Shown here: piece by piece, positions 106 through 20,000 of the stretch
How positions within the stretch are numbered: position 1 is the first letter of the stretch
Layout: each line of letters starts with the position of its first letter
DNA from: an uncultured virus (IMG/VR IMGVR_UViG_3300020048_000099)
Taxonomy: Duplodnaviria; Heunggongvirae; Uroviricota; Caudoviricetes
Reading direction: 5' to 3' (one strand)
IMG/VR virus record: IMGVR_UViG_3300020048_000099
DNA length: 20,000 bases
Notes under the pieces: generated by a model
The model's input: only the letters and a program-made list of their open reading frames with translations
What the model was told of the DNA's origin: nothing
Databases searched by the model: none
Program-made: the position numbers and the translations under genes

Positions 106-1395
106 ATGACTAGTCTTAATACTGTAATACGTCCTATAAATCAACCACCAGTTAATGACTTTGGAACTTCTATGAGGGTCTCAGGTGATGGAACTCGTTT
201 AGTTGTTGGTGATATAATGACTGGCAATACTTTAACAGACGGTGGTTGTATATATGTATTTTGTTACAGCACTACGGGTACTTCATGGGTACAAGAAGCT
301 AAATTATATCCAAATGTAAGAACTTTAGGTAGTAGGTTTGGATGGTCAGTTTCAATTAATCATGATGGTAGTAAAATTATTGTAGGAGCACCGTATGACA
401 ATAATAAAAATAATGAAACTGATGTACCTGGGTGCGGAGCAGCATATATTTTTGAAAGAACAAATACCACATGGAATCAAACAAAAATATTAAAAACTAA
501 TACATTAGTTACAAATGATAAATTTGGATATGCTGTAGATATTAATGAAAGTGGTAATAGAGTCATAGTTGGAGCACCACAAAAAACTAGTCCACCGGCA
601 CCTGAAGGTAAGTCATTTGTTGGTGCTGGTGCTGCGTATATTTTTAATTATTCAAACTCAAGTTGGGATACCGGTTATCTATTAACATCACGAGAATATT
701 TAGGGTCTGACGATCATCTTGGTAGTTCTGTTTCTATTAATGCAATTGGTAATATAGTGGCAATAGGAGCTAGAGGTGATAGAAGTGGAGAAAATTTGAA
801 TGGAGCGGCCTATGTATTTAGGTATAGAGCAAATCCAGCAAATGGAGTTCATTGGATATTAAAACAAAAGATGTTAGCTGCAGTATTAGGGCGCGAAGAA
901 GAATATGGTCATGCTTTATCTTTAAGCACCACTGGTGAATACTTAGCTATTGGTGGTTTTAATAGAACCACATATTATCAAGGTGGTGGAGCAGTAGATG
1001 TATGGAAAAAACAATCCGACAATAGTTACATTATGATTGATACAATAATACAAGATAATGCTACTCAATCTAAAATTAAACCTTGTTATCAAGCCTATTT
1101 TGGTTGGTCTGTTAGTTTTCTTGGTACATCTAATTTATTATTAATTGGTGCTCCAGGTACAGTTTACGAGGGATTAGAAGGAGCTGGAGTAGCTTACTGT
1201 TATAAAAATGTTAATGATAAATTTACTATGATTAAATTGTTATTATCTCCACCAATTGCTAGTGGTGACGGTTATGGAAGCTCCGTTTGTTTAGGTGAAT
1301 CTTCAACAGGTAACACAGCTGGAACTAGACAAATGTTAGTAGCTGCTGCAGGTAATAACACTGGAAAAATTTCTTGTCATTGGGAAACATTTTAA
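106..1395 (+). CDS. FG-GAP repeat (integrin-alpha-like) beta-propeller protein, probably virion-associated
   Basis: 429 aa with about 7 repeats of FG.S(V/L).(I/L)...G..(I/L).(V/I)GA....G.AY(I/V)F, e.g. RFGWSVSINHDGSKIIVGAP, KFGYAVDINESGNRVIVGAP, YFGWSVSFLGTSNLLLIGAP. SD-like TAAGG upstream. No signal peptide seen. Confidence 0.85.
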   Translation: MTSLNTVIRPINQPPVNDFGTSMRVSGDGTRLVVGDIMTGNTLTDGGCIYVFCYSTTGTSWVQEAKLYPNVRTLGSRFGWSVSINHDGSKIIVGAPYDNNKNNETDVPGCGAAYIFERTNTTWNQTKILKTNTLVTNDKFGYAVDINESGNRVIVGAPQKTSPPAPEGKSFVGAGAAYIFNYSNSSWDTGYLLTSREYLGSDDHLGSSVSINAIGNIVAIGARGDRSGENLNGAAYVFRYRANPANGVHWILKQKMLAAVLGREEEYGHALSLSTTGEYLAIGGFNRTTYYQGGGAVDVWKKQSDNSYIMIDTIIQDNATQSKIKPCYQAYFGWSVSFLGTSNLLLIGAPGTVYEGLEGAGVAYCYKNVNDKFTMIKLLLSPPIASGDGYGSSVCLGESSTGNTAGTRQMLVAAAGNNTGKISCHWETF

Positions 1396-1419
1396 ATAAA
1401 AATATATTAAATATAGAAT

Positions 1420-1458
1420 ATATACCCACAACTGCTGTAAAGGCAGTTGTGGGTATAT
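1420..1458. terminator. Hairpin between convergent genes, probable bidirectional terminator
   Basis: Perfect 16-bp inverted repeat ATATACCCACAACTGC (1420-1435) / GCAGTTGTGGGTATAT (1443-1458), 7-nt loop, AT-rich flanks, between the stops at 1395 (+) and 1464 (-). Confidence 0.8.
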
Positions 1459-1463
1459 TATAT

Positions 1464-3392
1464 TCAATTATAAATAACTACAGTTCCTGATGATAAAACA
1501 AGACTTTCTGGGATTTCATTCTGTGGGACAGAAATAACTAATTCATTACCACTAGCATCCATACAAACTGAGTATCCAAAATATGGATCAGTACTAGAAG
1601 AAATATTATTACTTAAGAATGTATATTCTAAATTCCAAGATACTCCATTAAATATAAAGGTATATGCACTACCTATATTACCTGGTTCATTAAATCTGTA
1701 ATGAGCGCCTATCAATACTTTATCCCCTACAGCATTAATGGCTACAGAATTACCGAATTGATCACCGTCAAGACCGTCAATAAGCATTAATTTATCTTTT
1801 TCTATCCATTCTCCACTGTCTAAAATAAAGATATATGCAGAACCTGTCTGTGAGTCAAATGCACCGTTTGATTCTCGTGCACCAATAATTATAGTATTAC
1901 CATTTTGGTTAATGTCTATAGAACAACCAAACTGGTCCATATCTCCACCATCAAATGGTATTAGTTTAGCTACATGGTCATAATTATAATTTATTAAATT
2001 AAATACATGTACACTACCAGTTCCAGAATCACTATCCATTGCTCCAACAGCTATTAAATCACCGGAGGCATTTGTAGCAACAGAAGTACCAAATCTATCG
2101 TTAGCAGCAGAATCTGGTGCTATTAATTTACTTATAAATAACCAATTACCTTCATTATATTCATAAACATAAGCACATCCAGTGTTATCCACTACACCAT
2201 CATCACCACTAGATCCTATAATTAAAATACTTGCATCGCTATTAAATACTATAGAACATCCAAAGTAAGAACCTGTATTGATATCTTCTAATGTTATTTT
2301 ACTCTCTAACTCCCATAATGAATTATTAAGTCTATATACATAGACAGACCCAGTATCAACTTGAGTAGAGTCGCCATAATACGCACCTAATGCAATACAT
2401 GTACCGTCGCTAGATATAGCACTAGAAACACCTAAGTAATCACCAGGATGTGGATCATTTGCTGTTAGTTTAGCGATAAATATCCAAACATTATTTATTT
2501 TATTAAATACATAGCCACAACCAGCATCAAAATAACCTTCATCAGCTAATCTAGCTCCAACAACAATAGTGTCACCTAATGCATTTATTGATACAGCTGA
2601 CCCAAACCAATCACCATTATTTCCTTCTACGTCATATAAAATATCTGTAGCTGTAGGTGCATTAATATTAGATTTAATAGTAAACGTAGTAATAGCACTC
2701 CAATCACTTTCTGTTTCACTATTACTGGTAAACTTAGCTCTTACATAATAAGTTGCACCGGCATCTAGATCTTCTAAATCCCATTTTAAGAAAGTAGTTG
2801 GATCAATAGTTTCTTCTTTTAATTTAAATCCGGTAGCAATCAAGTTGTTAAAGTTTACATTATCCGATAGTTCAAAATATACACTATTACAATGGTTAAT
2901 AAAATCTATAGTTTCATCAACAACTTTACCAAGTATCTTATAAGCGGCTAATTCAATAGTGATATTAGGTAGTAAGTTATATGTCAAATCCTTAGGAGAT
3001 ATTATAACAGGTGCATCTGGCGTAGCTTCAACTATGCTAATATTATATATTTTATTATTAAGAGTGAAACCAAATAAACCTGTTTCATCAGGCGATGTAT
3101 ATGTAATAATATCGTCTAATATACTAACAGAACCAAATTCAGTACTAACATTATATGAAGTTTCTATATCGTAATTAGTTATTCTATAACTACCACTTAT
3201 ATTTCGTGTTAATGTAGTAGGACCTTTAACAGTTGGAGAAACACCTCCAGTTTTATAAATCTCTGTTCCCAGTTTACTAGTTAAATGTATTTCTAACTCA
3301 TTGTTAGGTTTTTTTACAAAGTATAATGTAGACGCTTCTATTGTATCTGGAAGTTTATTTACTTTTTGCAATGTTAATATATCGTTAGACAT
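1464..3392 (-). CDS. Multidomain putative virion fibre/decoration protein: N-terminal adaptor, Ig/FN3-like domain, C-terminal FG-GAP beta-propeller
   Basis: 642 aa. The N-terminal KVNKLPDTIEASTLYFVK resembles a phage fibre-type motif. FN3-like signature LDAGATYYVRAKF...SDWSAITTFT. About 7 C-terminal FG-GAP repeats (GDWFGSAVSINALGDTIVVGA, DRFGTSVATNASGDLIAVGA, DQFGNSVAINAVGDKVLIGA). Strong SD AAGGAG. Confidence 0.85.
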   Translation of the reverse strand: MSNDILTLQKVNKLPDTIEASTLYFVKKPNNELEIHLTSKLGTEIYKTGGVSPTVKGPTTLTRNISGSYRITNYDIETSYNVSTEFGSVSILDDIITYTSPDETGLFGFTLNNKIYNISIVEATPDAPVIISPKDLTYNLLPNITIELAAYKILGKVVDETIDFINHCNSVYFELSDNVNFNNLIATGFKLKEETIDPTTFLKWDLEDLDAGATYYVRAKFTSNSETESDWSAITTFTIKSNINAPTATDILYDVEGNNGDWFGSAVSINALGDTIVVGARLADEGYFDAGCGYVFNKINNVWIFIAKLTANDPHPGDYLGVSSAISSDGTCIALGAYYGDSTQVDTGSVYVYRLNNSLWELESKITLEDINTGSYFGCSIVFNSDASILIIGSSGDDGVVDNTGCAYVYEYNEGNWLFISKLIAPDSAANDRFGTSVATNASGDLIAVGAMDSDSGTGSVHVFNLINYNYDHVAKLIPFDGGDMDQFGCSIDINQNGNTIIIGARESNGAFDSQTGSAYIFILDSGEWIEKDKLMLIDGLDGDQFGNSVAINAVGDKVLIGAHYRFNEPGNIGSAYTFIFNGVSWNLEYTFLSNNISSSTDPYFGYSVCMDASGNELVISVPQNEIPESLVLSSGTVVIYN

Positions 3393-5729: not shown

Positions 5730-7922
5730 TTAATAGATAGATTTAAGTGTAGACTGCTGTTCTAAAGTTAATGAATAGTAATTTTCTAATCCAGCTATTA
5801 GACTATCTGAACTTATTATTGGATCATAGTTGTCATACCTAACATCTATATAAATAGTTCCAAATCTTATAGCTATAATTGTATTAGAAGAAGTAGTTTG
5901 TATAGCGTTTAATGCTATAGGTATATCATACTTTAAAACTAATAAAGTATAATCTTTAACATCAAATTCTGGTAATTCAAGATGATGTGATCTTTGTTGA
6001 ACAAATTTAGAGTCTAATAACCCAACCGGATGATGTGAAAAAAATCTACCACTAAAAATAAATCCTATATCACCACATCTAATGGCTGCCCAATTTAATG
6101 GAATTATTCTAAAATCATTGATTTCTTTAATGATTTGAATATTGTAACTACTTAAATTTGTTAATAATGCTAATAATGCTGATTGAATATTTTTAAGTTG
6201 TTTAGTTTCATCTACAACATAACCTGTGGCACTAGAAAATATATTTTTTAATAATGCTTCAGCTTGCTCATTATTGTAATTGTAAAATGGTAAATTATTA
6301 GTTGTTAACCATGACTCTATATTACCTATAGATATAGTATCGTATGTATCTCCATATAACCTTAATATCATATTTGCTACAAAGCCACGTTTATACATGT
6401 CTTCAGTATTTGATATCATAAACCATTGCCTTAAACTTTCTTCATACAATCTATAAGATAAATTATAAAATATATTAGTAGAGAATGATTCGACTATAGG
6501 AGGTTGATTGATTAATAGGTCTTCTGCTATTTTTCTAAAGTCATTAGAACTATTATCAACTAACTTTAATAATTCTGTAATATCTGGTAATACTTCTAGT
6601 CTATATTTAGTATTATAAATAGCTATAGTTTCAGATATCTCAAAACCAGATGATTTTAAAGTTATATAATAATAATATATAAATGCATTCAATGCTGTAA
6701 GTGTTCTAATTTCTTCTGTCTTAGGATCTTTAAAATGCACTACTACATCATAAAGATTGTTTACAGACATATATATCCATTGTCTTAATAACACAACCTC
6801 TAATGGATCAGGTACAACATTATTATAATCAACTGCTCTAGATTCTAAATCTTTAGTTTTTACTACAGATGAATTAGAATTTTTAAATCTAATTGTATCA
6901 TGCTCTTCTTTATTACTATAGTAGTCTGTATTACCTATGGCTAGTTTTTTCTCTTTATTATAGAGCTGAGTTATAGGTATAAAGTCATCATCTATATCTA
7001 ACGCATTACTATTAATAACTGTTTTTTTAGCTAATAAGTTAGGATAGTATTTATTATCTACTGTCGACAATTGTCTAATACTATATTGTGAAATTTCTAT
7101 CCCTACGTCAGTTAGTAATTTATCGACAAGTGTTCTAAATTGATGTGAATTACCAAAGTTCCTACTGATATATTTTATATTTCTATAAAAATATAAAGCT
7201 TGTTTTAAAGTCATATAGTCTAAATATTTATCTAATCCCATATGACTGGTTAAATATTCTCTTATATGAAAGCTATGAACTTCATTAGTTTTACATCTTT
7301 TTAATCTAAGGTTTAATAATTTAGGAACTAAATGTAAATAAAGTAAAGAATAGTATGCTATATTATAATAGCTATCTGAAACACCGTAAGCTTGAACGTT
7401 CCATCTAATGGCGTGTCTTTTAATAAACCCTTCTAATTCTTTTATTAAACTTATCTCTTGAGGCTCTACTAAATGATTTGGATATCCTAATATACTATTA
7501 TTTTCAGCAGCTATAGCTACATCAATGTTTACTGGATATAAAATACCCATAATTAAACTTTCTTGATCAGGATATTTGTTTACTAAATTATAGTAATATC
7601 TACTTCCAAATTCATATGCTTTAGCTGTAGCTACATGATGAGAAAGATTTAGTTTGTTAAAATTTATTTCTTCTAATGTATCTAGTGACACAATAATCAT
7701 ATTTGTATCTAAACTATGATATTCTCCAGATACGTTTAAATAATATTTCCAAGTTTTCTTATCATATTTATCTACAGCTGATTCCCCGTATCCATTAATT
7801 ATTTTTGTATTTATAAGATCTGCAGTAATATCAGATTTTATATTTAGAGTTTTTATCAGTAATTTAGTATTCTCTAAATATTTTTTTAAAAATCCACTTT
7901 CACCTAAAGGTTCTATTTTCAT
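5730..7922 (-). CDS. Virion structural protein (phiKZ gp128-like, putative baseplate component)
   Basis: 730 aa. TWKYYLN.SGEYH..D..M...SLDT.EEI.F and RL..CKT.EVHSFHIREYL.SH..L motifs are typical of this phiKZ-like family. Size and position next to the portal-like gene fit. Confidence 0.7.
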   Translation of the reverse strand: MKIEPLGESGFLKKYLENTKLLIKTLNIKSDITADLINTKIINGYGESAVDKYDKKTWKYYLNVSGEYHSLDTNMIIVSLDTLEEINFNKLNLSHHVATAKAYEFGSRYYYNLVNKYPDQESLIMGILYPVNIDVAIAAENNSILGYPNHLVEPQEISLIKELEGFIKRHAIRWNVQAYGVSDSYYNIAYYSLLYLHLVPKLLNLRLKRCKTNEVHSFHIREYLTSHMGLDKYLDYMTLKQALYFYRNIKYISRNFGNSHQFRTLVDKLLTDVGIEISQYSIRQLSTVDNKYYPNLLAKKTVINSNALDIDDDFIPITQLYNKEKKLAIGNTDYYSNKEEHDTIRFKNSNSSVVKTKDLESRAVDYNNVVPDPLEVVLLRQWIYMSVNNLYDVVVHFKDPKTEEIRTLTALNAFIYYYYITLKSSGFEISETIAIYNTKYRLEVLPDITELLKLVDNSSNDFRKIAEDLLINQPPIVESFSTNIFYNLSYRLYEESLRQWFMISNTEDMYKRGFVANMILRLYGDTYDTISIGNIESWLTTNNLPFYNYNNEQAEALLKNIFSSATGYVVDETKQLKNIQSALLALLTNLSSYNIQIIKEINDFRIIPLNWAAIRCGDIGFIFSGRFFSHHPVGLLDSKFVQQRSHHLELPEFDVKDYTLLVLKYDIPIALNAIQTTSSNTIIAIRFGTIYIDVRYDNYDPIISSDSLIAGLENYYSLTLEQQSTLKSIY

Positions 7923-10644
7923 GACTAACCACCAAGAATTAAAAAAGATTATTAATTCGCTGAATAAAGGTAAACAATATCCAGCGTTACAATTAGTTAA
8001 ACATAACCCAGAGTTAGCTGCACTTGTTAGTAAACTAGTTAAACCTAAAGATCCTGCAGCTTTTGATATGGCAAAAAAAGAGTCATATTATGATCTTAAT
8101 CAGTCACAAATTAACACTATCTCAGATAGTATTAAAACTAGATTACAAGACAATGAAAACATAATTGAATTATTTCCAGACATTGAATTAGCTATACAAA
8201 TACTTGTAAGCTCTATCATATCCCCAAAGGATATGGTTAAGTCTGAATTAATTTATAGGGCATTAGAGCCTATTTTTCCAGCTGAAGTAATATTAAAATT
8301 AAATACAATAGTAAGTGAGCATTTTGAAAACTATTATAACATTAAGAACGACCTTCAAAAGATATTACGTGATACTCTTTTTACCACAGGTAGTTATGTA
8401 AAAGCTATACTACCTGAAAGTATAGTAGATGAATTAATTAATCAAAATAAGGTAGTATCAACAGAATCTTTAACAGAATTATTTAAAACAAATAAAGATA
8501 TAGTTAATCTAGGTATCTTAGGTAACCCAGGTAAAAACCAACCAAGATTAGCATTAGAACGTTTTAATAGTAATAGTCAAACTACAAATATTAGACCATT
8601 TCCTTTAGATAATAATGGTAAAATATCATTAGAAAATTTAGTAGAAGTTACAGATAATTATAAACTTTTAAAGCTACCTAAAGTTATAGATGCAAGTAAT
8701 AAAGCTAAATTAAAATCTATTATTAAAGGTAATACATTATCATTAGAAGCAGATAAACTTTCTACACATGATTTATCTACAATATTATATAAAACTAACT
8801 CTAATGATTCACAACCATTTATAGTTATTCCCAGTACTAATAACACTAAAAGAAAATCAGTAGGTAGACCATTAGTTTTACAACTACCTTCTGAATCTGT
8901 TATTCCAGTTTATACACCAGGTAGTGAAAATAAACATATTGGATATTTTGTTTTAGTAGATTCTGATGGTAATCCATTAACTATTAATAGTAATAAAGAA
9001 TCAGTAGATGGACTTTCTAGTTTACTTAATAACTCACAAGGTAATTCATTATCTTCATCTTTAATACAAAAAGCTAAAACAAATTTAGTTAATAAAAGTA
9101 AAGTAGTTACTATAGATGATATAACAAGAATATATGGAAATATCATTGAAACAGATTTAGTTGAACGTTTAAATAATGGTCTTTATGGTTCTAATGTAAG
9201 CGTAGCTAATAACGAAGCTATTTATAGAATTATGTTAGCTAGATCTCTATCATCGAAGTATACTAGATTAATATTTATTCCAGCTGAATTAACAACTTAC
9301 TTTGCATTTAAATATTTTACTAATGGAGTAGGAAAGTCATATTTAGACGATATTAAAGTATTAACTAGTTTACGTGCTATTATGCTTTTTGCTAAAGTAA
9401 TGGCATTAACTAAAAACTCTATTAACTTAACACATGTAAATATTACTCTTGATCCAAATGATCCAGACCCAGAAAAAACACTAGAAGTAGCAACTCACGA
9501 AGTTCTTAAAATGAGACAACAGTATTTTCCATTGGGAACTATTTCAACAGTTGACTTAGTGGATTGGATACAAAGAGCTGGTTTTGAATTTAGCTTTGAA
9601 GGTCATCCTGGACTACCACAAACTAAATTTGATTTTGAAAGTAAAAATCTTCAACATACTGTTCCAGACAGTGATTTAGATGAACTACTTCGTAAACAAA
9701 CATATATGGCCATGGGATTAAGTCCAGAAGTTGTAGATAATGGATTTAATTCAGAATTTGCTACTACAGTCATATCTAATAATATTTTACTTTCTAAACG
9801 AGTTATTCAACTACAAGAAACATTTACTAATCAATTAACTGATTTTTGTCATAAGGTTATAAATAACGATACTATAATCAATGCTGAATTAAAGGAAGTA
9901 TTAGTTGCTAATATTGGATTGATTGAAAAAATGTTAGATGACAATGAGAAGGAAGTATTAAGAACAGATAAAGATAGATTCATTAATGATTTGATAGAAA
10001 GATATGTCAATAATTTAAAAATAGATCTACCTAAACCAGATATAACTACTTTAGAGACGCAGGTTACTTCTTATGATTCATATGTAGAAGCTCTCGATAA
10101 GACATTAGATGCATGGATTAATTCTGAATTTATTACTTCTAACTTTGCTGGTAATATAAGCGATAATGTAGATTCTATTAAAGCTGTAGTGAAGAGTTAC
10201 TATATTAGAAGATGGATGGCTGAAAATGGTTTTATGCCAGAACTTAATGATATAGTGACTACTACAGAAGATGGTAAACCAACTATAGATATTTATGATA
10301 TTAATAAAAATCATATGGAAGGTATTATCCGTAGTTCTATAAAATTCATTAATGCTATTACGCCTATAAAAGAAGCAGCTGATAAAGATTTAGAAAGTCT
10401 AATTAAAGACAGTGGCGATAGTTCATCAGACGATACTTCTAGTTCTGATGATAACATGGGAGGAAATGAAGAAGATGGTGACGATATGTCTTTTGACATG
10501 CCAGGAGATGAACCCGACGAAGCAACAACTGACGACACGTCTGAGGAGGAAGAGAAACAGGAAGAAGAACAAAAAGAGGAAGAAAAAGTAGATGAAGAAG
10601 AAACAACTGATGACGATAAGGATATAAGTGATGAAAAAGAATAA
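7921..10644 (+). CDS. Putative portal protein (phiKZ gp129-like) with an acidic low-complexity C-terminal tail
   Basis: 907 aa. Motifs LFPDIELA.QIL.SSI.SPKDM, P.ESVIPV..PG....H.GYF.L.D..GNP, G.GKS.L and FATT.I..N.L..KRV...Q match my recollection of phiKZ-family portal proteins. The last ~80 aa are D/E/S-rich. Confidence 0.7.
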   Translation: MTNHQELKKIINSLNKGKQYPALQLVKHNPELAALVSKLVKPKDPAAFDMAKKESYYDLNQSQINTISDSIKTRLQDNENIIELFPDIELAIQILVSSIISPKDMVKSELIYRALEPIFPAEVILKLNTIVSEHFENYYNIKNDLQKILRDTLFTTGSYVKAILPESIVDELINQNKVVSTESLTELFKTNKDIVNLGILGNPGKNQPRLALERFNSNSQTTNIRPFPLDNNGKISLENLVEVTDNYKLLKLPKVIDASNKAKLKSIIKGNTLSLEADKLSTHDLSTILYKTNSNDSQPFIVIPSTNNTKRKSVGRPLVLQLPSESVIPVYTPGSENKHIGYFVLVDSDGNPLTINSNKESVDGLSSLLNNSQGNSLSSSLIQKAKTNLVNKSKVVTIDDITRIYGNIIETDLVERLNNGLYGSNVSVANNEAIYRIMLARSLSSKYTRLIFIPAELTTYFAFKYFTNGVGKSYLDDIKVLTSLRAIMLFAKVMALTKNSINLTHVNITLDPNDPDPEKTLEVATHEVLKMRQQYFPLGTISTVDLVDWIQRAGFEFSFEGHPGLPQTKFDFESKNLQHTVPDSDLDELLRKQTYMAMGLSPEVVDNGFNSEFATTVISNNILLSKRVIQLQETFTNQLTDFCHKVINNDTIINAELKEVLVANIGLIEKMLDDNEKEVLRTDKDRFINDLIERYVNNLKIDLPKPDITTLETQVTSYDSYVEALDKTLDAWINSEFITSNFAGNISDNVDSIKAVVKSYYIRRWMAENGFMPELNDIVTTTEDGKPTIDIYDINKNHMEGIIRSSIKFINAITPIKEAADKDLESLIKDSGDSSSDDTSSSDDNMGGNEEDGDDMSFDMPGDEPDEATTDDTSEEEEKQEEEQKEEEKVDEEETTDDDKDISDEKE

Positions 10645-11029
10645 AGTGTTTTTAGGTGGAACATGTAATGGTTCTACATGGAGAGATGAATTAATTCCTA
10701 TGTTAGAAATTGACTATTTCAATCCAGTAGTTCCTAATTGGACACAAGAGGATCAAAAAAAAGAAATTAAAGAACGTACAGAATCAGATTTCTGTTTATA
10801 TACTATTACTCCAAAAATGTCCGGTGTTTACAGTATAGCAGAAGTTGTTGATGATAGTAATAAAAGACCTAAGTCAACTATATTTGTATTTTTAATTAGT
10901 GATGAAGATAAAGCATTTACTATTGATCAGTATAAATCAATATTAGCTGTTGAGAAATTATTGATTAGAAATGGTGTGGTTTGTTTTGATAAGTTAGATG
11001 ATGTAGCAAAATGGTTAAATAATCAGTAA
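10628..11029 (+). CDS. Nucleoside 2-deoxyribosyltransferase-like (NDT-like, flavodoxin/TIR-like fold) protein
   Basis: 133 aa: KVFLGGTCN.STWR..LIP.L.IDYFNPVV.NW...E....D..LY.ITP.M.GVYSIAE, characteristic of the NDT-like (Nuc_deoxyri_tr2) family. The start (GTG 10628 or ATG 10631) overlaps the 3' end of the portal gene. Confidence 0.8.
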   Translation: MMKKNKVFLGGTCNGSTWRDELIPMLEIDYFNPVVPNWTQEDQKKEIKERTESDFCLYTITPKMSGVYSIAEVVDDSNKRPKSTIFVFLISDEDKAFTIDQYKSILAVEKLLIRNGVVCFDKLDDVAKWLNNQ

Positions 11030-11032
11030 ATT

Positions 11033-11073
11033 AAAAAAAAAACAACTACATGCTGGTATGCATGTAGTTGTTT
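11033..11073. terminator. Bidirectional intrinsic terminator between convergent genes
   Basis: Perfect 14-bp stem AAACAACTACATGC (11040-11053) / GCATGTAGTTGTTT (11060-11073), 6-nt loop. A10 run at 11033-11042 gives the minus-strand U-tract. Confidence 0.85.
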
Positions 11074-11090
11074 ACTATTACCTAAGTTTT

Positions 11091-11543
11091 TTACTCATGT
11101 AAATAGTTTTCAATTAAAACATTTACACCACATTCTTCAAATAATACTAAAGCACGTTCAGCATGATCTTTCCATCTTGATAAAAAATCTTCATCATTAG
11201 TTAATATGATAACAGATTTAAATCCAGCCTGAACTATAGCTCTAGCACAATCCATACATGGCGGGTGAGTTACTATCATTGTCCTTCCAGAAGTTGAGTA
11301 TCCACTTCTTGCTGCAGCATAGATAGCGTTACGCTCAGCATGTTCAAACCAGAAGTATTTTTCAGGCCTTTCTCCTCTTGGATCTCCTACTTCATCTGCT
11401 TTACATTTTCTAGGTGCGCCATTAAAACCCCAAGGTCCTCCTTCACCATCATCACCAACTATTAAAGCGCCTATCTTAGTACTTGGATCTTTAGATAGTT
11501 TAGAGATATCTAGAGCAGTGGCATATAATCTACGTAGGTTCAT
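11091..11543 (-). CDS. dCMP deaminase (ComEB-like zinc-dependent cytidine/deoxycytidylate deaminase)
   Basis: 150 aa: SKDPSTKIGA.I, G.NG.PR, zinc motifs HAERNAI and PCMDCARAIVQAG. Its start overlaps the stop of the upstream gene by 14 nt. Confidence 0.92.
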   Translation of the reverse strand: MNLRRLYATALDISKLSKDPSTKIGALIVGDDGEGGPWGFNGAPRKCKADEVGDPRGERPEKYFWFEHAERNAIYAAARSGYSTSGRTMIVTHPPCMDCARAIVQAGFKSVIILTNDEDFLSRWKDHAERALVLFEECGVNVLIENYLHE

Positions 11544-11853
11544 TATTCTTTTTGTAGATTTCGTTTTTCATTGAATAACCTTCTAACTTCCAAATCTTAT
11601 CTTTAGCATTTTCACGTGCCCAGTTTCTACCTTCTTCCGCATCAAAATTTTCTTTATCCACACATGCAGATTCACCAACAACAGCAAATCCATTTTTTAA
11701 CTTTAATATACATACTGTTACAGTTGTTTCTGGAAAAACATAATAATCTTCTCCAGTTATTAAAGTGTCAATATAATCAACAAATATTTTTTGTGTGTTT
11801 TTTACACTTAAATCATTTTCTTCTGAATTACTAACTTCACTTTTTAACATCAT
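11530..11853 (-). CDS. N4 Gp49/Sf6 gp66-family protein, candidate Acb4-like nucleotide-signal sponge
   Basis: 107 aa: TVTVC.L.LKNGF.V.GESACV..ENFDAE.GR..AR.NA..KIW.LEGY is the typical Phage_gp49_66 signature. SD AAAGGA upstream. The link to Acb4 comes from my recollection of the literature. Confidence 0.85.
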   Translation of the reverse strand: MMLKSEVSNSEENDLSVKNTQKIFVDYIDTLITGEDYYVFPETTVTVCILKLKNGFAVVGESACVDKENFDAEEGRNWARENAKDKIWKLEGYSMKNEIYKKNNEPT

Positions 11854-11865
11854 ATTTCCTTTATG

Positions 11866-11900
11866 AAAAAAATGCTACCCCATGATTTTTCATGAGGTAG
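11866..11900 (-). terminator. Intrinsic terminator downstream of the 84-aa paralog
   Basis: Minus strand CTACCTCATGA-AAAA-TCATGGGGTAG (11-bp stem with one G.U pair) followed by CATTTTTTTTT-like U-rich tail (A7 run at 11866-11872 on +). Confidence 0.75.
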
Positions 11901-11917
11901 AAAAATTATGATTACTA

Positions 11918-12172
11918 TTAAACTCTATTAATAGCTTTAAAATGCGCGCCTAAAAGACAAACCTCCTTTAAAGCCCCAGACCACTCACATGAATCCCAGT
12001 TACGTTTCATTGCTTCAGCACACATCCATGCTTTAACTTCTACTTTTAACTTATCAACAGGGTTATCAACATTATAAAAATTATAAATGTTAATAACCCT
12101 TTCAGTTGTAAGAACAAGATAAGGCTCGTTTGGTGTTCGATCATTTGGATCTGGGAATATATTACTTGCCAT
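11918..12172 (-). CDS. Hypothetical protein, tandem paralog A (84 aa)
   Basis: SD AAAGGA. Aligns without gaps to 12235..12495 with 49/84 identical residues by hand count. Confidence 0.85.
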   Translation of the reverse strand: MASNIFPDPNDRTPNEPYLVLTTERVINIYNFYNVDNPVDKLKVEVKAWMCAEAMKRNWDSCEWSGALKEVCLLGAHFKAINRV

Positions 12173-12192
12173 GATATATTCCTTTAAAAGTG

Positions 12193-12224
12193 AATAAAGC
12201 TATCCCATGAATTCACAGGATAGC
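12193..12224 (-). terminator. Hairpin (weak terminator) downstream of the 86-aa paralog
   Basis: Minus strand GCTATCCTGTGA-AT-TCATGGGATAGC (stem with G.U pairs) followed by TTTATT. Homologous to the 11874-11900 hairpin. Confidence 0.6.
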
Positions 12225-12234
12225 AGAACGACAA

Positions 12235-12495
12235 CTATGCTTTTAACTTTTTAGCAGTTTTAAAGTGAGCGCCTAATAGACAAACATCTTCAGATGCTCC
12301 AACCCATTCGCATGTATCCCAATTACGTTTCATAGCTCTTTCACACATCCATTCTTTAACCTCAGCATTTAGTTCACCTACTCTATTTTCTGCATTATGT
12401 ACATTATACAGATAAATAACTTGTCTACTCGTCATGATCAAATAAGGATCGTTCGGTGTTCTATCGTTTCCATCAGGTAAATAAATACGGGCCAT
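12235..12495 (-). CDS. Hypothetical protein, tandem paralog B (86 aa)
   Basis: SD AAAGGA. Shares PD.NDRTPN.PYL, EVK.WMC..AMKRNWD.CEW.GA and VCLLGAHFK with paralog A. Confidence 0.85.
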   Translation of the reverse strand: MARIYLPDGNDRTPNDPYLIMTSRQVIYLYNVHNAENRVGELNAEVKEWMCERAMKRNWDTCEWVGASEDVCLLGAHFKTAKKLKA

Positions 12496-12507
12496 GTTAT
12501 ACTTCCT

Positions 12508-14415
12508 TTAAAAGTGTTTAGTTAACATAAAATCACCAGGAGTTTTATAACTACTAGTAATCTTATATTTTACATTGTCAGCTGTTATCAATAAATCGTA
12601 TAAAGTTGACATACCAACTTGTTTTTTATGCAAAGATAGTGAATTAGCTATGTTATATAAATTAGGGAAAGTTTCCTTTTTAATGATGCAACTATCAATA
12701 GGATTACTTGACGAACCTTTAGTAAAAATGTAACCTAATTCATTTTCAGTATAGGTTAGATATGTAAAACTATAGTTAATTGGGAATAAAGTTAAAAATA
12801 GATCTTTATGCTTAGTCTCCTTTTCTATAGAAAGTATATCATAAACAAGATCAACATCGCTATCCATCAAAAGTAAATGCATTATATCCGATTCAAATCT
12901 ATAGAATGCCTCCTGTTCAACATTTGAATAATTGCTTAATAAATATTCTGGTAGACCTTTAATATCTTCAGCAAAGTTTTCAACTTCTTCATTTATCTTT
13001 ATACTATATCTACAGAAAGTATTAATTAACTTAGTAAGCTCATTATTAATAATACTTAATGCGTCAATAACACTACTTTTTAGATTTTCATCATCACTTT
13101 TATTTCTAACTGCTCCTACTATATTCATCATAGTCACAGATAAACCATAAAGTGATCCCGACTCCCTTAATCTTTTTATATACGCGCTAATATCAGATTT
13201 AGTAAAAATAGGAATAGTTACTGTTGAAAAGCATCTGAATATATCGTTTGTAGAACTATTTACCTGAGATTCAAATTTTCTTATTCTACCATTAATAATA
13301 GCAGAATCTTCTGAGACCTCAACTATCCATGAAGGAGATAAAACTTGTATATCTTCTGTAAAAACATCTTCATCAATAGATATTACAGCTTCATTTAATT
13401 TATTAACTGAGGCTGTATAATCCACATATTTAACTATGCCGTCAATTGCATAATGTTCGTTAAAATATGATATTTTGTGTTTAGATCTCTCCACTTCAGT
13501 GCCTCCTTTAATTTCTAATAAATTAAATCTTTTTATTTTTGCTTCTCCATTAAGTTCAGTAATTTTAGGTGAAACTATCTGAACATTAGAATTTGTATCA
13601 TCAATTGCTCTTCTATCAAATTCTCTACCAGTATCCCATTTTCTCTGTCCATCAAAATTAGATTGCTGTGGTGGTCCTTGATTAAATGTAGGTTGAGGCA
13701 TTTGCTGTGGATACTGCGGCGGCATCTGCTGTGGATACTGCGGAGGAAACTGAGGTTGGTATTGAGGATACATAGGCTGTGGATACTGTTGAGGATATTG
13801 CTGAGGAACCTGTTGGGGATACATGGGTTGTGGGTACTGCTGTGGATACTGTGGTTGACCCATAGGCTGCTGGTACTGCGGTTGCATCTGCTGTGGATAC
13901 TGTGGTTGCGACATCGTATTTCCTTTATTTAAATTTTCATGTGGTGAGTTATACATAGACTGTAATTCCTGCTTTAAGTTATTAAAGACAGGAACATTTT
14001 GAAACGCCGCATCTAAAAGTTTTTGTGAACATTTAGCTTTTAAATCCGGAAACAAAAATACTAAATTACTAGAGTACAATGTTAAAATTTGATTAACTGC
14101 ATCCTCTAATCCAGTTTCGGGTGTTCTGTATAACCCACTTATCACACTTTTACATAAGTAATCTAATGAAAGTTTTACAACCTCTATAAAGTATTCATTC
14201 TGCCAGTTACCGTTCATGAGAAGATTATAACAAAATAATCTACAAGCATTACTTCCCGCTTTAGCAGTCGCAGTGTTAGCTACGCATATAGCTACATCTT
14301 TAGTCATATGCGAAACCATAGGCATAACGTTTAAGTTAGGTAAATAAAACTGATTACTATTACTATAATGTTGCTGTGGTACCATCATGTAATCTGCTGA
14401 TACAGGTAGCGACAT
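12508..14415 (-). CDS. Conserved-type jumbo phage hypothetical protein with a central Gln/Pro/Tyr-rich low-complexity region
   Basis: 635-aa ORF, SD GGAG upstream. Helical N-terminal domain (1-167), QYPQQ repeats (~168-253), linker, and C-terminal domain (~308-635). Lies downstream of the RNAP subunit, as I recall for phiKZ relatives. Confidence 0.8.
   Translation of the reverse strand: MSLPVSADYMMVPQQHYSNSNQFYLPNLNVMPMVSHMTKDVAICVANTATAKAGSNACRLFCYNLLMNGNWQNEYFIEVVKLSLDYLCKSVISGLYRTPETGLEDAVNQILTLYSSNLVFLFPDLKAKCSQKLLDAAFQNVPVFNNLKQELQSMYNSPHENLNKGNTMSQPQYPQQMQPQYQQPMGQPQYPQQYPQPMYPQQVPQQYPQQYPQPMYPQYQPQFPPQYPQQMPPQYPQQMPQPTFNQGPPQQSNFDGQRKWDTGREFDRRAIDDTNSNVQIVSPKITELNGEAKIKRFNLLEIKGGTEVERSKHKISYFNEHYAIDGIVKYVDYTASVNKLNEAVISIDEDVFTEDIQVLSPSWIVEVSEDSAIINGRIRKFESQVNSSTNDIFRCFSTVTIPIFTKSDISAYIKRLRESGSLYGLSVTMMNIVGAVRNKSDDENLKSSVIDALSIINNELTKLINTFCRYSIKINEEVENFAEDIKGLPEYLLSNYSNVEQEAFYRFESDIMHLLLMDSDVDLVYDILSIEKETKHKDLFLTLFPINYSFTYLTYTENELGYIFTKGSSSNPIDSCIIKKETFPNLYNIANSLSLHKKQVGMSTLYDLLITADNVKYKITSSYKTPGDFMLTKHF
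13660..13914 (-). repeat. Coding minisatellite encoding (P)QYPQ(Q) repeats
   Basis: CTGTGGATACTG (+) occurs at 13705, 13729, 13777, 13840 and 13891, plus degenerate copies. Locally GC-rich. Confidence 0.9.
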
Positions 14416-18621: not shown

Positions 18622-18912
18622 CTAAAGAAATATCTGAGCCGCTCCAGGGCTCACTAGCAACTTCTTTAGGGTAATATCGGATCCCGCCTTGAACCCAACA
18701 GGCGGGACCACATCATAGAATTTGCCAGGCTTTTCTTCTACCTGGCAAACTCCCCTGAAAGTCCCGATTAACAGGACCCTCAGACCGCTGGGGGATCTTA
18801 TCCCCAGTACCATCCCTGGCGGTACTTCTGTACCGCCAGGGCGAAACGCTGCATTGCGGTCGTAACCGGCCGCAAAGAACGTTTCAAACAACCCATGTGT
18901 GCAATTAGCCAT
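18622..18912 (-). CDS. Small hypothetical protein (96 aa), GC-rich, probable early gene
   Basis: Strong SD AGGAGGT before ATG, with its own promoter-like motif and terminator. About 50-55% GC by partial hand count. Confidence 0.85.
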   Translation of the reverse strand: MANCTHGLFETFFAAGYDRNAAFRPGGTEVPPGMVLGIRSPSGLRVLLIGTFRGVCQVEEKPGKFYDVVPPVGFKAGSDITLKKLLVSPGAAQIFL

Positions 18913-18955
18913 CTTGCACCTCCTATAAAAAACGATATTACAATATGCAATATCT

Positions 18956-18972
18956 TCAGCTAAAGTATATAT
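18956..18972 (-). promoter_or_regulatory. Candidate phage-RNAP promoter motif ATATATACTTTAnnTGA (copy 2)
   Basis: The minus strand reads AAAAAATTTCAGTCATATATACTTTAGCTGA, placed between a terminator and the 96-aa gene. Near-identical copy at 17718-17734. Confidence 0.6.
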
Positions 18973-18999
18973 GACTGAAATTTTTTATATGCGGGAGTG

Positions 19000-19042
19000 A
19001 AAAAAAAAACAATACCCAGGGTTGATAGCCCCGGGTATTGTT
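19000..19042 (-). terminator. Intrinsic terminator
   Basis: Minus strand AACAATACCCGGGG-CTATCAA-CCCTGGGTATTGTT (14-bp stem with one G.U pair) followed by a U-run (A10 at 19000-19009 on +), just after the stop at 19049. Confidence 0.9.
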
Positions 19043-19048
19043 CAACTA

Positions 19049-19471
19049 TCAATCATCATCATCCTCATCCTCTTCTTCTCCCCAGTCTTGCTCGCGATCT
19101 CTTCTATCACGAGCAAGACGTGTTAAGTGAGCATTCTTTTTGCGACACTCGCCGCAAACAGGGAGCTCTTCATCTCCCTGAGCCGCATAGAAGTCATACC
19201 ACTTCCATAAAATACCACCACTTGCGAGGGTGAAATCACCATTGCAATCGTTGCAAGTGTGAACTTCCTCCTCAATTTGGTTCTGCTGCGCTTCGTAGCA
19301 ATCTTCGCAGAGGCAATAACCTTCACTACCGAATGAGTCGTTTTCCCTCCACACCGCGAACATTACTAATGGATTTTCAGACACGTGATCGCAGCAATCG
19401 TTCTCAGCTGCAAGAACGGCTTTCTTTTCTGGTGTTGCTCCAGTTACAAAACTTGCAGTAAACCAGTTCAT
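19049..19471 (-). CDS. Cys-rich putative zinc-finger protein (~140 aa) with acidic C-terminus
   Basis: Motifs CCDH, CLCEDC, CNDC and CGEC could bind two Zn ions. Tail EEEDEDDDD. The most likely start is ATG 19471 (GGAG SD), not 19513 as in the ORF track. Confidence 0.8.
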   Translation of the reverse strand: MNWFTASFVTGATPEKKAVLAAENDCCDHVSENPLVMFAVWRENDSFGSEGYCLCEDCYEAQQNQIEEEVHTCNDCNGDFTLASGGILWKWYDFYAAQGDEELPVCGECRKKNAHLTRLARDRRDREQDWGEEEDEDDDD

Positions 19472-19559
19472 GTTAAACTCCATACCCCAGATAGAACCCC
19501 GAGGAGCAGGCATATGGCCAAAGTTGGCCTAATGTATAAACTACATTAACTAAACTATA

Positions 19560-20000
19560 TTAAGTACGTTGTACCAGTTGAGAGTATTCATCTAAACTAA
19601 TTCTCCTATAATTGAATAAAGCTAAATTGTTCAACCTATTTAACATAGTAGCGTAGCTTATTCCAGTTTTTCTTGATGCTTCCATTATACTTCTATATGG
19701 TACATCGTTTACTAACACTGGTTGTGCATTTGCATTTGCACTGTTTTTAAAAGCTGTTTCAGTAAGAACTCTATGCTTCGCTGAAAATGACATCTTTTCT
19801 TTAGTTTCTTTAGTGAAAATTCTATTTTTAGCTATTTCAGCTAATTTATTTTTAACCTCTAAACTAGCTATTCTACCTTTGATTGCTTCTGAAATTTTCT
19901 TTTTAGTTTCTTCAGAGTGTTTTTTACCAGTTCTATATTGCGACATTTTTGCCCTGGTTTCTAAACTAATAATCCTACCTTTAGCTGCTTCAGACATCTT
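19560..20000 (-). mobile_element. 3' part of a homing endonuclease gene (NUMOD3 repeats plus C-terminal NUMOD1/HTH DNA-binding domain); nuclease domain outside the window
   Basis: Repeats such as GKKHSEETKKKISEAIKG, GRIISLETRAKMS and FTKETKEKMS, then V.VNDVPYRSIMEASRKTGISYATMLNRL. The frame is open to the window edge (AAG before the listed ATG). Confidence 0.8.

Follow-up and report, generated by a model that had tools for sequence, protein, structure and literature searches.

A variable five-gene cluster with a candidate Acb4-family sponge gene in a putative phiKZ-like jumbo phage

Jumbo phages of the nucleus-forming and related kinds are protected against DNA-targeting immunity; to our knowledge, the way in which jumbo phages handle signalling defences, such as the cyclic-oligonucleotide-based anti-phage signalling system (CBASS), is less documented. 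The locus described here bears on this question. In a 20-kb stretch of the uncultured Caudoviricetes record IMG/VR IMGVR_UViG_3300020048_000099 (the window; all coordinates count from its first base), five small genes are located at the point where two core operons converge. They encode a nucleoside deoxyribosyltransferase (NDT)-like protein, a dCMP-deaminase-type protein, a member of the Acb4 sponge family, and two tandem paralogs, A and B. Do these genes form one system directed against host defence, or did they gather at a permissive site for separate reasons? As judged by comparison with related phages, the cluster is an accessory insertion in a conserved junction. It is fairly probable, in our view, that the interval is a mosaic cassette of three functionally separate parts. 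This cassette would have accumulated where the portal operon and the operon of the RNA polymerase (RNAP) subunit and the 635-aa gene converge.

The junction and its variability

A metagenome scan gave one relative of the window, locus L095, in which the portal and the RNAP subunit are both 57.6% identical to those of the window. L095 shares the order of nine genes with the window; synteny is kept for the spanin, RuvC, DUF7208, the 730-aa gene, the portal, the large gene, the RNAP subunit, and a 431-aa homolog. At the junction of L095, only 92 bp lie between the portal and a 1065-aa homolog of the 635-aa gene. The same position holds no gene in Burkholderia phage FLC9, one 80-aa gene in Bacillus phage AgentSmith, and one 74-aa gene in FLC1-1B; the 80-aa gene of AgentSmith is unrelated to the paralogs of the window. 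When these three complete genomes were searched with the paralog profile, PF13876, and PF15891, no matches were found (0/3), and the deaminase was likewise found in none of the three (0/3) in a search that had no positive control. Because the cluster is missing from the L095 junction and from the genomes of the three cultured relatives, it is regarded as accessory. This means that the interval is variable, and that the invariant housekeeping role considered in a first-pass annotation of this DNA does not apply. In ENA, there are copies 97% identical to the PF13876 protein (P0219) and 99% identical to paralog B (P0001). Therefore, a very close relative retains at least these two genes.

The five open reading frames (ORFs) were verified at the coordinates given in Table 1, with the portal on one side and the 635-aa gene, followed by the RNAP subunit (phrog_2943, E 2.1e-134), on the other. 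They are real genes and not chance frames, because each has homologs elsewhere and the paralog pair shows a rough dN (nonsynonymous divergence) of 0.28 against a dS (synonymous divergence) of 1.54. The first-pass annotation had read much of this arrangement correctly from the letters alone. Its placing of five small genes between core operons holds, as do its family assignments (NDT-like, dCMP deaminase, and Gp49/66), which are confirmed by PF15891, by PF00383 with phrog_174, and by PF13876, respectively. The 14-nt overlap that it gave between the Gp49/66 gene and the deaminase also follows from the coordinates: the deaminase ATG (11543) is inside the end of the PF13876 gene (stop 11530). The NDT-like gene was described as coupled to the portal, and the two genes indeed overlap: the portal stop is at 10644, which gives 17 nt counted from the GTG at 10628 or 14 nt counted from the ATG at 10631. 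The 84- and 86-aa genes proved to be paralogs, as it had proposed.

Table 1. Coordinates of the five genes, their flanking genes, and the intervening hairpins in the window
Feature	Coordinates	Strand	Evidence or remark
Portal / virion structural protein, 907 aa; left-flank core gene, acidic tail at its end	7921..10644	+	phrog_3004, E 4.5e-205
NDT-like enzyme (putative), 133 aa from GTG 10628	10628..11029	+	PF15891 Nuc_deoxyri_tr2, E 4.8e-8
Hairpin with 14-bp stem (5/14 pairs G-C), A-run on one side, T-run on the other	11040..11073		between the convergent units
dCMP-deaminase-type zinc deaminase, 150 aa; second gene of a two-gene unit	11091..11543	-	PF00383 E 4.6e-17; phrog_174 E 2.4e-29
Acb4-family (PF13876) protein, 107 aa	11530..11853	-	PF13876 98.1 bits vs cut-off 27
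Terminator-like hairpin 3' of paralog A	11875..11900	-	hairpin scan
Paralog A, 84 aa, ~80-aa alpha/beta domain family	11918..12172	-	58% identical to paralog B
Terminator-like hairpin 3' of paralog B; homologous to the hairpin of paralog A	12199..12224	-	hairpin scan and comparison
Paralog B, 86 aa, own ribosome-binding site	12235..12495	-	begins 12 nt past the 635-aa gene's stop
635-aa gene, right flank, fast-evolving, beside the RNAP subunit gene	12508..14415	-	26-28% identical to the L095 1065-aa gene

Three terminator-like minus-strand hairpins were found in 10400-12700, against 0.7 ± 0.7 expected, and they close three minus-strand units. The hairpin between the convergent units is likely to be a bidirectional terminator. 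The GC content at third codon positions (GC3) of the island genes is 0.16-0.24, reported as within the range of the other genes of the phage (0.08-0.23). Therefore, the genes are not recent arrivals, and by this measure they seem to be long resident in this genome.

That all five genes are accessory and missing from relatives would also be expected if they formed one nucleotide-centred counter-defence island, as the first-pass annotation proposed. In such an island, the sponge would act together with cleavage of signalling or toxic nucleotides, with rebalancing of pools against dNTP depletion, and with new sponges or inhibitors encoded by the paralogs. We regard this as unlikely, and the evidence on both sides is given with the individual genes below.

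The Acb4-family gene and the coupled deaminase

The 107-aa protein is, on sequence grounds, firmly a member of the Acb4 family (PF13876, Phage_gp49_66). The match has an E value of 4.2e-28 and extends over profile positions 4-81 of 82. A phmmer comparison of the single sequence with the solved chain of Acb4 from Bacillus phage SPO1 (PDB 9E4W) gave an E value of 5.2e-5, and a profile of 7 close homologs reached 2.3e-8 over chain residues 24-87. Homologs were found in 836 phage records, the best being ~64% identical over the core.

In the sections of Chang et al. used here (PMC11722364), Acb4 of SPO1 is described as a tetramer that sponges 3'3'-cGAMP and CBASS signals related to it. PF13876 is identified there as the Acb4 family, which numbers 1,331 homologs; 3'3'-cGAMP was bound by all eight of the diverse homologs tested, and those of them from phages of Gram-negative hosts bound 3'3'-cAA too. 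The first-pass statement that the Gp49/Sf6-gp66 family includes the CBASS sponge Acb4 is thus supported by the same sections (PMC11722364) and by the 9E4W match.

The protein aligns with SPO1 Acb4 over the beta-sheet core and helix alpha4, and keeps the stacking Phe and one phosphate-contacting Lys. Like SPO1 Acb4, it is small and stand-alone, and is encoded in a phage accessory region. It differs in having a 25-residue low-complexity N-terminal extension; moreover, the phage that encodes it is a phiKZ-like jumbo phage, and a deaminase gene is translationally coupled to its own. Taken together with the family membership, the protein is likely to be a cyclic-dinucleotide (CBASS-signal) sponge, and its base specificity probably differs from that of SPO1 Acb4. 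In the first part of the proposed cassette, a homotetramer of this protein would sequester CBASS cyclic dinucleotides of the 3'3'-cGAMP class, so that the host effector would be left untriggered. The presence of a clear Acb4-family gene here, in a variable slot and in a phiKZ-like phage that is very divergent, adds a data point that such phages carry signal sponges too. The assignment itself is biology that was already known; what merits bench work is the PF15891 group, together with the paralog domain described below.

One bona fide sponge-family gene in the cluster speaks for a coherent island, and in this respect the first-pass proposal of a nucleotide-centred anti-defence island stands: the island is variable and contains an Acb4-family sponge gene. 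The joining of all five genes into one system is not supported, its grounds being adjacency and theme. A common theme of "nucleotides" does not turn five neighbouring genes into one system, and the present analysis corrects this over-reading.

The zinc motifs are intact in the deaminase translation, as H68-A-E70 and P95-C96-M-D-C99. The protein is 43-47% identical to the annotated dCMP deaminases of the jumbo phages PA5oct (Pseudomonas) and RAS14 (Stenotrophomonas), and homologs were found in 1908 phage records. The NCBIfam equivalog cut-offs were not reached, with 40.8 against 219.45 bits for ComEB (TIGR02571) and 46 against 400 for the anti-phage dCTP deaminase; therefore, the assignment stays at the level of the dCMP-deaminase type. 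Scans of the island with PADLOC and NCBIfam added only deaminase-domain matches. From its sequence, the protein looks like an ordinary phage dCMP deaminase: it shares the PF00383 fold and the HAE and PCxxC zinc motifs with the phage enzymes of the T4 Cd type (phrog_174). However, compared with annotated phage dCMP deaminases, it lies far under the equivalog scores, and it is absent from the nearest relatives of the window phage.

In the first part of the cassette, the coupled deaminase would convert dCMP to dUMP, and would thereby feed the thymidylate supply of a ~70% A+T genome. The sponge gene and the deaminase are translationally coupled, which is a point in favour of a coherent island, whereas the common phage type to which the deaminase belongs is a point against it.

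The NDT-like gene and the tandem paralogs

The NDT-like protein passes the gathering score of PF15891 (33.7 bits against a cut-off of 30), and the match is confined to residues 5-69. The true start of the gene is likely to be the ATG at 10631; the database copy of the protein (P0003) has 132 aa. It belongs to a group of 6,920 proteins at E<=1e-3, the best of them 55-66% identical, and the homologs carry a precomputed PF15891 label. The group was found in 287 confirmed viral contigs, 2 to 425 kb in size; among cultured phages, just 21 records carry it, Lak megaphages, Psa21, and phiCD418 being examples.

In all of the aligned homologs (25/25), Glu72, which is part of the YSIAE motif, is invariant, and other motifs are invariant likewise. 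This residue may occupy the position at which NDT-fold enzymes carry their nucleophile. The likeness to the NDT/DNPH1 (Rcl) superfamily consists of the Pfam score and, possibly, this Glu residue. The differences are that the Pfam match covers only the N-terminal half, and that the group forms its own very tight clade, with 55-66% identity across thousands of metagenomic and phage proteins. Sequence searches of the PDB gave no solved NDT or DNPH1 chain related to the protein. A literature search on the names PF15891 and Nuc_deoxyri_tr2 found no paper; a paper on phage NDT (10.1101/2025.10.22.683976) concerns, in the part considered here, PF05014, which is another family. The group is an under-studied phage auxiliary enzyme, and what makes it a lead is that it is very abundant (~6,900 proteins) and very conserved, and has no solved structure.

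The neighbourhoods of these genes were surveyed by calling ORFs in 80 fetched viral loci, 75 of which had a recognisable NDT-like ORF, with 144 direct neighbours. The direct neighbours included ribonucleotide reductase (6/75 loci), AAA_28 (2 loci), ThyX, NUDIX, and a PRPP-synthetase-associated domain. Furthermore, DnaB, UvrD, PolB, RNase H, DHH, and methylases were found as neighbours. Within 4 kb of the NDT-like gene, a dCMP deaminase was present in 3 of the 80 loci, an Acb4-family ORF in one, and the paralog family in none (0/80). Such company points to nucleotide-pool metabolism, as far as genomic context can indicate a role.

In the window, the gene is probably translationally coupled to the portal, judging from the overlap, and would thus be expressed with structural genes. 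The nucleotide-metabolism and replication neighbours and the portal coupling argue for a role in nucleotide-pool metabolism rather than in immune-signal destruction. As the second part of the cassette, the enzyme, appended to the portal operon, would act on N-glycosidic bonds of deoxynucleosides or deoxynucleotides, in salvage or pool editing. A coherent island is opposed on two counts here: the family keeps company with ribonucleotide reductase, ThyX, and replication genes, with an Acb4-family gene nearby in only the single locus, and the gene is coupled to the portal and not to an early-looking unit.

It should be mentioned that in this single locus (L079, 298-1333), a 148-aa Acb4-family ORF, a 62-aa ORF, and the NDT-like gene are arranged head to tail on one strand; it is the sole such case in the survey. 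A coherent island can draw on it, since the Acb4-family ORF lies two genes before the NDT-like gene.

Paralogs A and B align with an E value of 5e-40, and the duplication spans the whole unit, that is, the leader bearing the ribosome-binding site, the ORF, and the terminator hairpin. Their rough dN/dS of ~0.18 suggests that they are under constraint. A HMMER search with the paralog profile against 1.84 billion representatives gave 63 proteins (clusters) at E<=1e-3, and those other than paralog A are distant (E 4e-10 or weaker). In an alignment of 51 members, the start FPDPNDR(S/T)PNxP is conserved, along with an LYN motif and a W...A...GW pattern; records of Lachnospiraceae, Ruminococcus, Oscillospiraceae, and Selenomonas contain members. 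At E<=0.01, neither paralog matched any Pfam family, and no sponge family was found among the 51 scanned members. Neither paralog B nor the family member P0130 gave a tblastn match in phage records, and a word-based protein search returned only the query paralog and its partner. The longer family matches P0127 and P0164 look like low-complexity noise. A zinc site formed by C51, C62, and C72, which are present in both paralogs, was considered and dropped, these residues not being conserved across the family. The net charge of the paralogs, counted from the sequence, is about neutral.

The AlphaFold2 model of paralog B on the 51-sequence alignment has a pLDDT score (predicted local distance difference test) of 90.4 and the order beta-alpha-alpha-beta-beta. 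Earlier models were set aside: AlphaFold2 on 3 sequences gave a pLDDT of 62, and ESM Atlas gave 0.39, with meaningless matches. The best Foldseek match of the model in the PDB had an E value of 0.68, and no solved sponge was listed. In the wide search by VIA-align, the best Z was 5.0, for the winged-helix RepE, followed by R3H domains at 4.2-4.3, where chance typically gives 7-8; no sponge was listed there either, although a missing match in these searches does not exclude one. Prediction of a homodimer from two copies scored 0.11 and 0.01 against a mark of 0.42, which gives no verdict either way. On the model, therefore, the paralogs would represent a sparse, unnamed ~80-aa alpha/beta domain family with no solved counterpart.

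The comparison with known sponges that the first-pass annotation had suggested thus gave a split outcome: the 107-aa protein matches Acb4, and the paralogs match no sponge by Pfam or fold, which again opposes a coherent island. With the known small phage sponges (Tad1, Tad2 (PF11195), Acb2, Sequestin (PF21825), and Lockin), the paralogs share a length under 100 aa, a phage-borne gene, an accessory slot, and a sponge neighbour; these are traits listed for sponges in the part of 10.1101/2025.07.12.664507 used here. On the other hand, the predicted fold is alpha/beta whereas Sequestin is all-helical, and the fusion partners found for the paralog domain are not sponge domains.

These fusions are found in other phages. 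In BFVD, the model matched uncharacterised proteins of 200-420 aa from Erwinia jumbo phages and from Klebsiella phage Eowyn, with a probability of 1.0. Profile searches confirmed the domain at the N-terminus of PhiEaH1 AGX01827 and Eowyn CAD5236291 and at the C-terminus of phiEaH2 AFQ96642, and it is the C-terminal module of four unannotated PHROGs (phrog_18480, 24489, 26772, and 33648). Apart from P0127 and P0164, the fused forms showed no Pfam partner domain. The four genes after the domain-bearing gene of phiEaH2 do not contain the domain.

Elsewhere, the setting of the family varies. In two related gut-phage contigs (L093 and L094, 3308-4228), no base separates the gene from the ThyX stop (4000/4001); a RecD-like helicase, Gp157, and an NAD-dependent ligase belong to the surrounding replication module. 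Four independent prophage or phage contexts have the family gene next to or between terminase and portal genes, in part on the opposite strand. Two contigs carry it beside Tn916-type Xis/Int, one contig near a tail gene, and one metagenome-assembled genome in a plain metabolic neighbourhood. Most of these contexts are without a known counter-defence gene, which is a further argument against a coherent island. As the third part of the proposed cassette, the paralogs would be a tandem-duplicated small alpha/beta domain, one that in other phages behaves like a mobile moron or a module.

These contexts could also be read as those of nucleic-acid-binding or adaptor proteins, such as regulators or docking modules, unrelated to immunity and built on a portable interaction module. 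The fusion of the domain to unrelated regions, N- or C-terminally, in Erwinia and Klebsiella jumbo phages and in the four PHROGs fits such a role. So do the weak fold resemblances to winged-helix RepE and R3H, the position directly after ThyX in the replication module of the two gut-phage contigs, and the four placements beside terminase or portal genes. However, the fold matches are under any meaningful threshold, and no DNA-binding Pfam family was matched by the paralogs or by the scanned family members. Moreover, the gene is duplicated in tandem, has terminators of its own, and occupies a variable slot next to a sponge gene, which makes it look more like an arms-race gene than a regulator. 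A nucleic-acid-binding or adaptor role is improbable in our estimation.

A different possibility arises from PhiEaH1. Its AGX01825 (L008 4950-5261; annotated "hypothetical protein") is Acb4-like, with a PF13876 score of 24.9 bits against a cut-off of 27 and a BLASTP E value of 1e-9 to the 107-aa protein, and it is located two genes downstream of the domain-bearing AGX01827. This placing is in favour of a coherent island. No PF13876 gene was found in phiEaH2 and Eowyn, in which the domain is present. Of the genomes examined, two hold both families, the window and PhiEaH1, and both have them as neighbours (2/2), in a sample that is small and was drawn post hoc. The adjacency in PhiEaH1 is suggestive, a lead and not a proof. 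There is a modest chance, and hardly a large one, that the paralogs found a new phage counter-defence family working beside Acb4. If so, the strictly conserved FPDPNDR(S/T)PNxP segment would be the business end, binding either a protein of host immunity or a nucleotide signal outside the range of the known sponges. The family is a lead for its confident predicted fold, its striking conserved N-terminal motif, and its two adjacencies to Acb4-family genes.

Several observations weigh against the mosaic cassette or against the activities that we infer for its parts. Two of them concern independence: the 14-nt coupling of the sponge and deaminase genes could mean a shared purpose and not mere packing, and the adjacency of the Acb4 and paralog families in the window and in PhiEaH1, which are unrelated jumbo phages, may mean that these two parts are functionally linked. 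Two concern the NDT-like protein. More than half of the direct neighbours of the NDT-like genes have no Pfam family, and NDT-type chemistry would be ascribed to the protein itself from a partial Pfam match with no solved relative.

The remaining observations concern the ligand of the 107-aa protein. In the sections of PMC11722364 used here, the ligand contacts of SPO1 Acb4 are K36, F48, E49, V56, Y57, F62, N63, I66, T70, and K81. These residues were carried through the phmmer alignment to the 107-aa protein, the 9E4W chain being numbered +1. Three of the ten are identical (F48/F56, F62/F70, and K81/K89), and the guanine-reading K36 and E49 are replaced by T44 and A57. With seven of ten contacts changed, the choice of ligand, and even binding, could differ. 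The diverse homologs reported in PMC11722364 nevertheless bound cGAMP, so that divergence at the contacts does not decide binding.

The changed contacts would also be expected if the cluster were the nucleotide-metabolic housekeeping of an AT-rich genome, in which the PF13876 protein had drifted away from immune-signal sponging; metabolic enzymes make up two of the five genes, and GC3 indicates long residence in the genome. This is opposed by the binding of 3'3'-cGAMP by all eight homologs in spite of their divergence (PMC11722364, in the sections cited), by the invariance of F56, the stacking Phe, within the clade of the 107-aa protein, and by the lack of these genes in every relative examined, which indicates that they are not essential. 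We consider housekeeping very improbable, and retain the mosaic cassette as the preferred reading.

The phage and the remainder of the window

The window is AT-rich, with a GC content of mostly 0.26-0.36. By Pfam and PHROG scans, it contains hallmark genes of phiKZ-like jumbo phages: the 907-aa portal/virion protein, the RNAP subunit, RuvC, DUF7208, an Rz/Rz1-like spanin, and a 730-aa protein of virion type. No chimallin gene is present in the window. A search with the portal matched 286 phiKZ-like phage records, every one less than 60% identical, and the best matches were FLC9 (38%), AgentSmith, and Ralstonia phages. Megablast of 10000-13000 against 50,697 phage records gave no nucleotide-level match, and scans of viral contigs with the 635-aa protein and with the portal found no relatives. 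Near-identical DNA is present in three runs of one aquatic-metagenome study, and one of these runs may be where the window itself comes from; no RNA run was listed among those containing it. No joint that skips the island was found in the run contigs; their coverage is fragmentary in two of the three runs, so that they are uninformative on variants. The best explanation is that the window comes from a divergent phiKZ-like jumbo phage of an aquatic metagenome. Because a spanin pair is present, its host is probably Gram-negative.

The flanking genes have features of their own. The similarity of the 635-aa gene to its positional counterparts in FLC9 and AgentSmith is undetectable. It has a P/Q-rich low-complexity stretch at about residues 165-250, and its position beside the RNAP subunit is kept despite very fast evolution. 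The portal ends in a long acidic D/E/S tail, of which an antisense 117-aa ORF (10311-10664) is a shadow. The start codons of the portal (plus strand, 7921) and of the divergent 730-aa gene (minus strand, 7922) overlap back to back (7920-7923). This means that both promoters must fall within coding sequence.

Two further regions of the window may be mentioned. In 106-3392, two convergent genes (429 and 642 aa) consist of FG-GAP repeats (E 1.5e-32 and 1.3e-59); neither has a PHROG match, and they are unusual content for a phage structural region. At the other end, two minus-strand ORFs of 96 and 154 aa (18622-19513; the latter is phrog_8344) are 52.6% and 47.3% GC, where all other genes of the window lie at 23-37%, and a NUMOD3/HNH homing endonuclease gene (19560-19997) directly adjoins them. 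This region, 18622-19513, looks like a compositionally foreign patch.

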